Below, one piece after another: positions 45,232 to 51,738 of a DNA stretch of 64,000 bases; within the stretch, counting starts at the first letter, position 1, and every line of letters begins with the position of its first letter. A program made the position numbers and the translations under genes. The notes under the pieces were generated by a model, which saw only the letters and a program-made list of their open reading frames with translations, was not told the origin of the DNA and did no database searches. Source of the stretch: Escherichia coli (lineage in GTDB: Bacteria; Pseudomonadota; Gammaproteobacteria; Enterobacterales; Enterobacteriaceae); the NCBI RefSeq assembly GCF_003790525.1, contig NZ_CP033635.1. One strand, 5' to 3'.

Positions 45232-45301
45232 TCCGTTCCTCATGGAGTTGTCGGTTCGTTTTAACGGTTGGTGATATCACTATAGATATTGATCATTAAG
45301 T

Positions 45302-45346
45302 TGATTAGACCCAAAATCATGATTAGACCTATCATTTAAATGATTA
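45302..45346. promoter_or_regulatory. Direct TGATTA(GACC) repeats in divergent ycjY-ycjZ promoter
   Basis: TGATTAGACC at 45302 and 45320, TGATTA at 45341 (18-21 bp spacing); typical position for a LysR-type operator. Confidence 0.35.
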
Positions 45347-48268: not shown

Positions 48269-49300
48269 TTAGCGACCCTGGTCCGGCGGTGTAATGTTAT
48301 CCATATACAGCGTCTGGCTGGGGAAGGCAAAGTCCGCACCGTGTGACTGTACAATATCGATAATCTTCAAATAAACGTCTTGCTGTGCAGCAAGCCACTC
48401 AGCCCATACCGTGGTTTTGGTAAAGCAATAAACCATAATATTTAATGACGAATCAGCAAACTGGTTGAAATAAACCAGTAAGGTTTGTCGCTGGTCGATG
48501 GCCGGGTGATTTTTCAGCATCTCACGTACGGCTTCGACAATAACGCCCACTTTTGCCGCATCCTCATAACGTAAACCAATGGTCGTGGTAATGCGCCGGT
48601 TGGTCATTCGTCCAGGATTTTCTACGCTGATCGACGAAAACAGCGAGTTCGGTACGTACAATGGACGATTATCAAAGGTCTTAATTTTGGTAATTCGCCA
48701 GCCAATTTCCGCTACTGTACCTTCGATATTTCTGTCCGGTGAACGGATCCAGTCGCCAATACTGAAAGGACGGTCGAAATAGAGCATAATCCCGGAAAAG
48801 AAGTTACTCAGAATATCTTTACCGGCCATACCGACAGCCAGACCACCAATACCACCAAAGGTCAACAAGCCAGAAAGGCTCATGCCGAAATGTTCGCCAT
48901 AAAGCAGAACAAGCACCACAATAATGGTGATTTTGATAATGCGCGACATGATCCGCGCACTGGTGATATCGCGACCTTTTTTAATCTGCTGTTTTTCAAA
49001 CTGATTAATCAGCAGAAATAGCTTAATCGTCAGAATAACCGCAATCAGGGACGTACAGATAAAATCGATAACGCCTGGGGTGATAAATTTGAGTTTATAG
49101 TTTTCTATAACATAGTTAATGATGCTACCAACAGCACTAATAATTATGGTGTAGATTAAAAATTGCACCGCATGGAATAAAAATCCTTTTCTTTTACGAT
49201 TTCCACGGCGAAACCAAAAGCTCATCAGAATCAATGCTGCGCAGCTACCGAAAATAATGACCAGATTAAGCGCATTATTTGTAAACAGTTCAGCGATCAT
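48269..49300 (-). CDS. ynaI: Small-conductance mechanosensitive channel YnaI (MscS family)
   Basis: 343-aa ORF with N-terminal TM helices and MscS-like C-terminal domain. Confidence 0.9.
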
Positions 49301-49423
49301 TGTTTTATCAGGCTCCTCCAGATAATTGTCGTCATGCCGGAAACCCCTGGCGGGGCTATTTTACCGCGACAATTCATTCAGATCATCAATAGTCAGGGAA
49401 GTAAGTAGCAACATTAGCTAACA

Positions 49424-49439
49424 AATCAATGCATTGATT
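49424..49439. promoter_or_regulatory. Perfect 16-bp palindrome in divergent ynaI-ynaJ region
   Basis: AATCAATGCATTGATT; about 105 bp upstream of ynaJ, about 125 bp upstream of ynaI. Confidence 0.4.
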
Positions 49440-49543
49440 GTAAATCCAGCTAAGAGGTGAGGTTTTCAGAGCAGACAAGAGTGAAATGTCATGGTATTGT
49501 TACGTTTAGGTAACAAGAAATTTGTCTGCACAAGGATTACATC

Positions 49544-49801
49544 ATGATTATGGCGAAACTGAAGTCAGCGAAAGGGAAGAAATTTCTCTTTGGTTTGTTG
49601 GCGGTTTTCATTATTGCGGCGTCGGTTGTGACTCGCGCGACCATCGGCGGCGTTATAGAACAGTACAATATTCCGCTGTCTGAGTGGACGACATCAATGT
49701 ATGTGATTCAGTCATCGATGATTTTTGTTTATAGCCTGGTCTTTACTGTGTTGCTGGCAATCCCGTTGGGAATTTATTTCCTTGGCGGCGAAGAGCAGTA
49801 A
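49544..49801 (+). CDS. ynaJ: Small inner-membrane protein YnaJ
   Basis: 85-aa ORF with two predicted TM helices. Confidence 0.8.
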   Translation: MIMAKLKSAKGKKFLFGLLAVFIIAASVVTRATIGGVIEQYNIPLSEWTTSMYVIQSSMIFVYSLVFTVLLAIPLGIYFLGGEEQ

Positions 49802-51724: not shown

Positions 51725-51738
51725 TTGATATTTGTCAA
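51725..51738. promoter_or_regulatory. FNR box at fnr promoter (autoregulation)
   Basis: TTGAT-ATTT-GTCAA matches TTGAT-N4-ATCAA, 20-33 bp upstream of fnr ATG. Confidence 0.6.

Follow-up and report, generated by a model that had tools for sequence, protein, structure and literature searches.

An ATCAA-N4-TTGAT inverted repeat between the divergent genes ynaI and ynaJ as a candidate operator in Escherichia

Background

The window analyzed here is a stretch of 64,000 bp of Escherichia coli DNA (contig NZ_CP033635.1, assembly GCF_003790525.1). It contains two divergently oriented genes, namely ynaI (48269-49300, minus strand), which encodes a small-conductance mechanosensitive channel paralogue, and ynaJ (49544-49801, plus strand), which encodes a DUF2534 inner-membrane protein. 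The gap between them is 243 bp, and ynaJ is followed by uspE and then by fnr, which lies two genes away. Gene names were taken from the RefSeq annotation of E. coli loci that are identical or near-identical to the window, and the 243-bp intergenic region shows 100% identity to that of E. coli strain 2014C-3075.

Between the two genes lies AATCAATGCATTGATT (49424-49439), a perfect 16-bp palindrome. A sequence-only reading had pointed to it as a perfect palindrome in a divergent promoter region, and both the sequence and the coordinates given there are exact. No second copy occurs in the window, even when two mismatches are permitted. The palindrome encloses a 5-4-5 inverted repeat, ATCAA-N4-TTGAT (49425-49438), which is the candidate protein-binding unit on account of the conservation of its arms. 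None of the papers found to mention ynaJ describes the repeat.

Methods

YnaJ loci were taken from one genome per species and 25 intergenic regions were aligned. Changes were counted as extra character states per alignment column. The number of palindromes in the window was compared with 100 dinucleotide-preserving shuffles. As a control for integration host factor (IHF) occupancy, every perfect consensus site within the surrounding 150 kb of the MG1655 genome was mapped onto the published peak list.

Results

Promoters and oxygen control of the ynaI-ynaJ region

For ynaI, the MG1655 start site is given as 1395973 in a Reg-Seq supplement that cites Mendoza-Vargas 2009. Via the end of ynaI at 1395922, this mapped start corresponds to position 49351 of the window, directly downstream of a -10 element TAAAAT (49358-49363, minus strand) that is conserved across genera. 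The core promoter of ynaJ (49472-49500, plus strand), with hexamers read from the sequence, is composed of a -35-like CAGACA (49472-49477), a 17-bp spacer ending in TGg and a -10 element TATTGT (49495-49500). Its start site is placed at about 49507-49508, based on the label -12 to +9 of the ArcA site described below. A sigma70 ChIP-seq peak at U00096.2 1395358 (Myers et al. 2013, supplements) maps to about 49513 and agrees with this core promoter. Two blocks are conserved across genera in the alignment of 25 regions: the -10 region of ynaI and, in the promoter of ynaJ, GCAGACA-N9-TGTCATGGTATTGTT together with the ...GTAAC after it (49471-49514).

Two further observations were made in these promoter regions. 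The stretch GCAGACA-N9-TGTCATGG (49471-49494) is near-invariant in Escherichia, Salmonella and Citrobacter, with one TGG to TGA change. Such conservation would seem to exceed the apparent need of a weak -35 and an extended -10 element, and the small GACA/TGTC inverted repeat that it contains might be a further site. On the ynaI side, a terminator-like hairpin, TGCCGGAAACCCCTGGCG then GGGCTATTTT (49335-49361, plus strand), is conserved in Escherichia; it lies on the strand opposite to ynaI, spans the ynaI start and -10 region and reaches into the beginning of the 5' leader.

An ArcA box, ATTGTTACGTTTAGGTAACAA (49496-49516), overlies the -10 element and +1 of ynaJ. The supplements of Park et al. 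(2013) list a strong ArcA ChIP-chip and ChIP-seq peak with a site at U00096.2 1395341-1395361 (-12 to +9), and report 3.4-fold derepression of ynaJ without ArcA. This site maps to 49496-49516 of the window, in agreement with the extended -10 TGgTATTGT. The box reads ATTGTTAC-GTTTAG-GTAACAA and is conserved in Escherichia, Salmonella and Citrobacter alike. Aerobic sigma70 occupancy at ynaJ is about 10 times the anaerobic value (1130 vs 120), and the aerobic/anaerobic expression ratio is 2.5 for ynaJ and 0.40 for ynaI (Myers et al. 2013). The known oxygen control of ynaJ runs via this box, which is separate from the palindrome. Like the palindrome, the ArcA operator is an inverted repeat in the same intergenic region (TTGTTAC-N6-GTAACAA); unlike the palindrome, it is supported by ChIP and expression data, overlaps -10 and +1 and is kept across genera, and its sequence is another one. 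The sequence-only reading overlooked this experimentally supported operator. ArcA was rejected as the factor at the palindrome itself, where no ArcA-like match is found; the box at 49496-49516 accounts for both the peak and the regulation.

The center of the ATCAA-N4-TTGAT repeat (49431.5) falls at about -80.5 relative to the start of ynaI and about -76.5 relative to that of ynaJ, 4 bp off the midpoint of the two divergent start sites. The repeat is set off from the conserved block upstream of ynaI by only six variable bases, and from the ynaJ promoter by 27 hypervariable ones.

Perfect symmetry is a rare allele

The window contains one perfect palindrome of at least 16 bp. The mean of the shuffles is 1.36, with one or more in 75% of them; the count does not exceed chance, and about one such palindrome per window is to be expected at random.

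The majority allele at the locus is AATCAATGCGTTGATT, with G at 49433 and T at 49423. It is present, in a 44-mer that is otherwise identical (context ...CTAACTAATCAATGCGTTGATTG...), in 5,023 of the 5,408 complete E. coli genomes that have the 44-bp stretch (93%). Nico21(DE3), a strain of the BL21(DE3) type, has this majority 44-mer without interruption. The 44-mer identical to the window occurs in 35 of the 5,408, SMS-3-5 among them. Nine further genomes at most may have the palindrome next to one additional change in the flank, as was read directly in two of them, which brings the perfect allele to a total of about 35-44 complete genomes (<1%). An intermediate allele, with G to A at 49433 and without the linked T to A at 49423, was found in no genome. 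The A at 49433, which completes the symmetry, is taken to be derived because most other Escherichia species have G there; the A linked to it, immediately beyond the palindrome at 49423, is likewise read as derived. While the window allele is perfect over 16 bp, the majority allele has perfect 6-bp arms around a TGCG spacer. Judged from these alleles, the perfect symmetry is a rare, lineage-specific accident, so the candidate unit is the 14-bp 5-4-5 repeat. As an observation, the palindrome stands in its sequence and position; it is not more frequent than chance predicts, and its perfect symmetry is not general at the locus.

No Rfam family matches over the repeat at E ≤ 1. Folded as a hairpin or cruciform, it reaches -4.4 kcal/mol (z = -1.24), an ordinary single-strand fold, and a promoter and terminator scan returned no sigma70 promoter and no terminator at the repeat. 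The lack of an RNA family, a stable hairpin and promoter or terminator matches was counted in favor of an operator. Within the window, ATCAANNNNTTGAT has a single exact copy and seven one-mismatch matches, against 3.0 expected.

The arms are conserved within Escherichia

Escherichia, Salmonella and Citrobacter have ynaI and ynaJ in divergent orientation, 234-249 bp apart, whereas Enterobacter, Lelliottia and others have another gene upstream of ynaJ and no such repeat. At the homologous place, ATCAA-N4-TTGAT is absent in Salmonella and Citrobacter, though both genes and both core promoters are kept. Conservation across relatives, which the sequence-only reading had proposed as a check, thus does not extend beyond the genus.

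Within the genus, the repeat reads ATCAA-TGCA-TTGAT in the window, ATCAA-TGCG-TTGAT in the E. coli majority, ATCAA-TCTG-CTGAT in strain SCPM, ATCAA-CGAG-TTGAT in E1V33 and E. whittamii, ATCAA-TGGG-TTGAT in E69 and ATCAA-TATA-TTGGT in E. albertii. Among these seven Escherichia sequences the left arm is unchanged and the right arm has one single-base change in each of two lineages. The 10 arm sites together show 2 changes, the 4 spacer sites 7 and the 10 flank sites 12. The contrast between arms and spacer plus flanks at the repeat ranks first of 219 intergenic positions, in a test that was picked after the data had been seen and that has about five independent lineages behind it. Against the average of the whole region, 2 changes per 10 sites is ordinary, as 64 of 219 intergenic windows do as well. 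Read from this alignment, the ATCAA and TTGAT arms appear to be conserved non-randomly in the genus Escherichia, with the spacer and flanks free to vary.

The hypervariable linker from the repeat to the ynaJ promoter block (49440-49466, 27 bp) is heavily substituted and almost randomized among Escherichia species, with no change in length and zero indels in the seven sequences. All seven intergenic regions measure exactly 243 bp. This constant length despite a randomized linker suggests that spacing, and not sequence, is under constraint.

In the Citrobacter freundii complex, the place homologous to about 49415-49445 is taken by a different inverted repeat, AGCGCTATTT-N6-AAATAGCGCT, whose arms pair perfectly in C. 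braakii and with one mismatch in several other species. Its presence there suggests that the position is used for symmetric sites.

Insertion sequences separate the repeat from ynaI

In K-12 strains, IS5 is inserted at the target CTAA (49418-49421), 2 bp from the palindrome, and separates the repeat from ynaI (PMC11677980). A BW25113 derivative from which the IS5 at ynaI/ynaJ is deleted was constructed in that study. Strain FDAARGOS_943 carries a different IS5-family element at TA (49423-49424), with duplication of the TA, and has lost 10 bp from the ynaI promoter region as well. Two independent insertions are thus found at most 6 bp from the left edge of the repeat. After both of them, the 14-bp core stays on the ynaJ side and is severed from ynaI. 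The intergenic region is interrupted in about 367 of 5,422 genomes.

At K-12 ynaI, IS5 replaces everything upstream of -71. The Reg-Seq verdict for ynaI in K-12, no regulator sites, is uninformative on the repeat for this reason. With the repeat cut off from ynaI by IS5, K-12 amounts to a natural mutant for it and cannot serve for studies of its effect on ynaI.

Discussion

We tentatively regard ATCAA-N4-TTGAT (49425-49438) as an orphan operator for a dimeric regulator, a reading to which we give somewhat less than an even chance and which builds on the pattern of sequence conservation. More generally, the core is probably a genus-specific protein-binding site of minor importance. A dimeric operator, as the sequence-only reading had proposed, is plausible in that the seven sequences share the arms and differ freely in spacer and flanks; the 16-bp palindrome as the unit has to be given up, and no factor was matched to it. 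That reading had also named two findings that would speak against an operator. Conservation is present, within the genus only, and FNR and IHF occupancy is lacking in the K-12 tables of Myers et al. (2013).

The best-surviving alternative is that the repeat has no function. It would be a chance AT-rich inverted repeat, its arm conservation a small-sample effect beside a fast-evolving stretch and the G to A change neutral; we consider this rather unlikely. It agrees with a palindrome count at chance level, with the rarity of the perfect form and with the lack of conservation outside Escherichia. The K-12 tables hold no FNR or IHF occupancy at the site, and the ArcA peak 30-50 bp away belongs to a separate box. 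Two independent IS insertions beside the repeat are tolerated, Reg-Seq gave no regulator sites at ynaI in K-12, and equally conserved arms are common among the intergenic windows. Against it stands the form of the conservation. Five unchanged bases, a near-saturated spacer and five bases with two changes give the top contrast, and do so in the most variable part of the region. With a local frequency of unchanged sites of about 21%, the unchanged run of five has a P near 0.02 by a rough estimate. Moreover, the two conserved blocks are reverse complements of each other.

Alternatively, the repeat may be an IHF site, where a bend midway between the divergent promoters sets the architecture and the palindrome arises from an asymmetric consensus that is matched both ways. 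AATCAATGCATTG fits the IHF consensus WATCAANNNNTTR (as quoted in PMC8407004) perfectly on both strands, with overlapping matches at 49424-49436 (plus) and 49427-49439 (minus), and the majority allele does likewise. Every specified position of the core consensus WATCARNNNNTTR is matched on both strands. Six of the seven Escherichia sequences have a full match in at least one orientation, E. albertii falls short of the flanking W only, and the core is present in all seven. The arm change of strain SCPM, ATCAA to ATCAG, is permitted by the consensus (R), and the freely varying spacer falls on the consensus N4. IHF is the only known factor whose consensus fits the repeat, a perfect fit on both strands that had escaped the sequence-only reading. 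In the window as a whole, WATCAANNNNTTR occurs seven times versus 2.65 expected, a number reached by none of 100 shuffles; two of the seven are the palindrome itself.

IHF ChIP-chip of anaerobic MG1655 (Myers et al. 2013, Table S4) has no peak at the site (about U00096.2 1395276; U00096.3 1397245-1397260), the nearest being at 1392853-1393174 and 1402582-1402777. The ArcA ChIP peak 30-50 bp away indicates that the neighborhood could be assayed despite IS5. Of 10 other perfect consensus sites in the surrounding 150 kb, 3-4 fall in or beside a peak of the same IHF list, including Rac attL and attR, where 14-21% is expected from coverage. As it detects no more than these 3-4 of 10 comparable sites, the negative result lowers the IHF reading and is informative, not decisive. 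The supplements of Kasho 2021 do not mention the locus, and at the homologous place in Salmonella and Citrobacter the IHF consensus is absent.

The strongest IHF sites have an A/T-rich tract 5' of the core, which is not obligatory. No A-tract precedes the core here in either orientation (GCTAACA and GTAAATCC). The last two bases of each arm are conserved though IHF, in one orientation, does not need them. Compared with IHF sites such as lambda H' (TATCAATTTGTTG), the repeat shares the consensus (on both strands) and a variable N4 in the place of the spacer. It differs in its dyad, which the asymmetric IHF sites do not need, and in lacking the upstream A-tract and a K-12 ChIP-chip peak. Taken together, we consider an IHF site unlikely.

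A pair of back-to-back -35 elements, with TTGATT reading outward on each strand to serve secondary divergent promoters, is very improbable. TTGAT(T/G) matches TTGACA at 4 of 6 positions on both strands, but an acceptable -10 element is missing 16-18 bp downstream on both sides, where the sequence is not conserved either. The promoter scan at the repeat was empty, and the sigma70 peaks together with the start sites (mapped for ynaI, inferred for ynaJ) agree with the conserved core promoters instead.

Several described types of operator were compared with the repeat. The FNR box shares its length of 14 bp, the 5-4-5 layout, the same pentamers and, in the proposed reading, an uncontacted 4-bp spacer, and the repeat lies two genes from fnr. 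Unlike in the FNR box, however, the arms stand in the opposite order (ATCAA-N4-TTGAT versus TTGAT-N4-ATCAA), which puts different bases at any given distance from the dyad. Even with up to 2-3 mismatches tolerated, nothing that overlaps 49424-49439 matches the FNR pattern. The K-12 FNR peaks (S5) and predicted sites (S6) of Myers et al. (2013) include neither ynaJ, ynaI nor uspE and no coordinate in 1394900-1395499, and thus nothing within about 75-125 bp of the repeat. The sequence-only reading was right to set it apart from canonical FNR sites. The FNR effect on ynaJ, which is scored as FNR-repressed in RNA-seq and in neither microarray set (Myers et al. 2013), is probably indirect. An FNR-type site does occur elsewhere in the window: TTGATATTTGTCAA upstream of fnr (51725-51738) is an FNR box with one mismatch, and presumably the fnr autoregulation site.

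CRP was rejected at the repeat for want of a consensus match, despite the listing of ynaJ as a predicted target in genomic SELEX (Shimada 2011). With up to three mismatches, TGTGA-N6-TCACA has no match in the intergenic region; the sole CRP-like match lies inside ynaJ (49627-49642). In position, the repeat resembles class I-type upstream sites (CRP at -72.5 or -82.5), being a symmetric repeat about 76-81 bp upstream of two promoters. In contrast to those sites, its sequence is unrelated to CRP and the phasing is exact for neither promoter.

PgrR, encoded 4 kb from the repeat, was rejected as well. Similar-looking ATCA-N6-TGAT repeats are present at ycjY-pgrR, but the genomic SELEX targets of PgrR list ycjY/ycjZ and not ynaI or ynaJ. 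In the ycjY-pgrR intergenic region, ATCA/TGAT repeats cluster at 45283-45344, with ATCATTAAGTTGAT (45292-45305), the 14-bp perfect palindrome ATCATTTAAATGAT (45331-45344) and two copies of TGATTAGACC; these are possibly PgrR autoregulatory sites. The ChIP-exo supplements for 40 uncharacterized K-12 factors mention neither ynaI nor ynaJ. A LysR-type T-N11-A motif does not apply, as the sequence reads T-N10-A. LacI-type operators require a fixed central CG, and the center of the repeat varies between sequences.

That the repeat is an atypical site for FNR, ArcA, CRP or PgrR, nearby or oxygen-responsive as these are, is hardly credible: the higher aerobic expression of ynaJ and its derepression without FNR in RNA-seq, the opposite behavior of ynaI, the CRP SELEX entry and the proximity of fnr are outweighed by the reversed FNR half-sites without peak or predicted site, the ArcA effect accounted for by its own box, the lack of CRP- and ArcA-like matches and the absence of the locus from the PgrR targets. 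No cognate factor emerged for the repeat among the FNR, CRP and ArcA consensus sequences, the PgrR SELEX targets and the 40-factor ChIP-exo set.

As an orphan operator, the 14-bp repeat would be an Escherichia-specific site for a symmetric homodimer of the helix-turn-helix type. Each monomer would read one 5-bp arm and leave the 4-bp spacer uncontacted, so that the spacer could mutate freely, including the G to A change that perfected the symmetry in the lineage of the window. The bound protein would act from upstream, by class I-type activation or as an auxiliary or architectural partner, rather than by blocking RNA polymerase. Since six variable bases lead to the ynaI block and 27 hypervariable bases to the ynaJ promoter, the repeat more likely serves ynaI than ynaJ, as far as distances can tell. 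Conservation of both arms beyond what IHF needs in one orientation, the fixed 243-bp spacing and the near-midpoint position were counted for such an operator. Counted against it were the viability of K-12 with IS5 2 bp away and of another strain with an IS at the repeat edge, and the activity of the ynaI promoter in K-12 without the repeat.

A more far-reaching version, which we consider possible and by no means likely, is that the repeat is the operator of an Escherichia regulator that couples ynaI, and perhaps ynaJ, to some signal. Work in K-12 would have missed it because IS5 has cut the operator off from ynaI, and the Citrobacter repeat would then reflect operator turnover at a fixed architectural position.

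Two misreadings are averted by this analysis, as the repeat is not an unusual FNR site and its perfect symmetry appears to be a lineage-specific accident. If the operator is real, it would add one more orphan regulatory site in E. coli and change no general principle. The regulation of the poorly understood YnaI channel may in that case differ between K-12 and wild E. coli.
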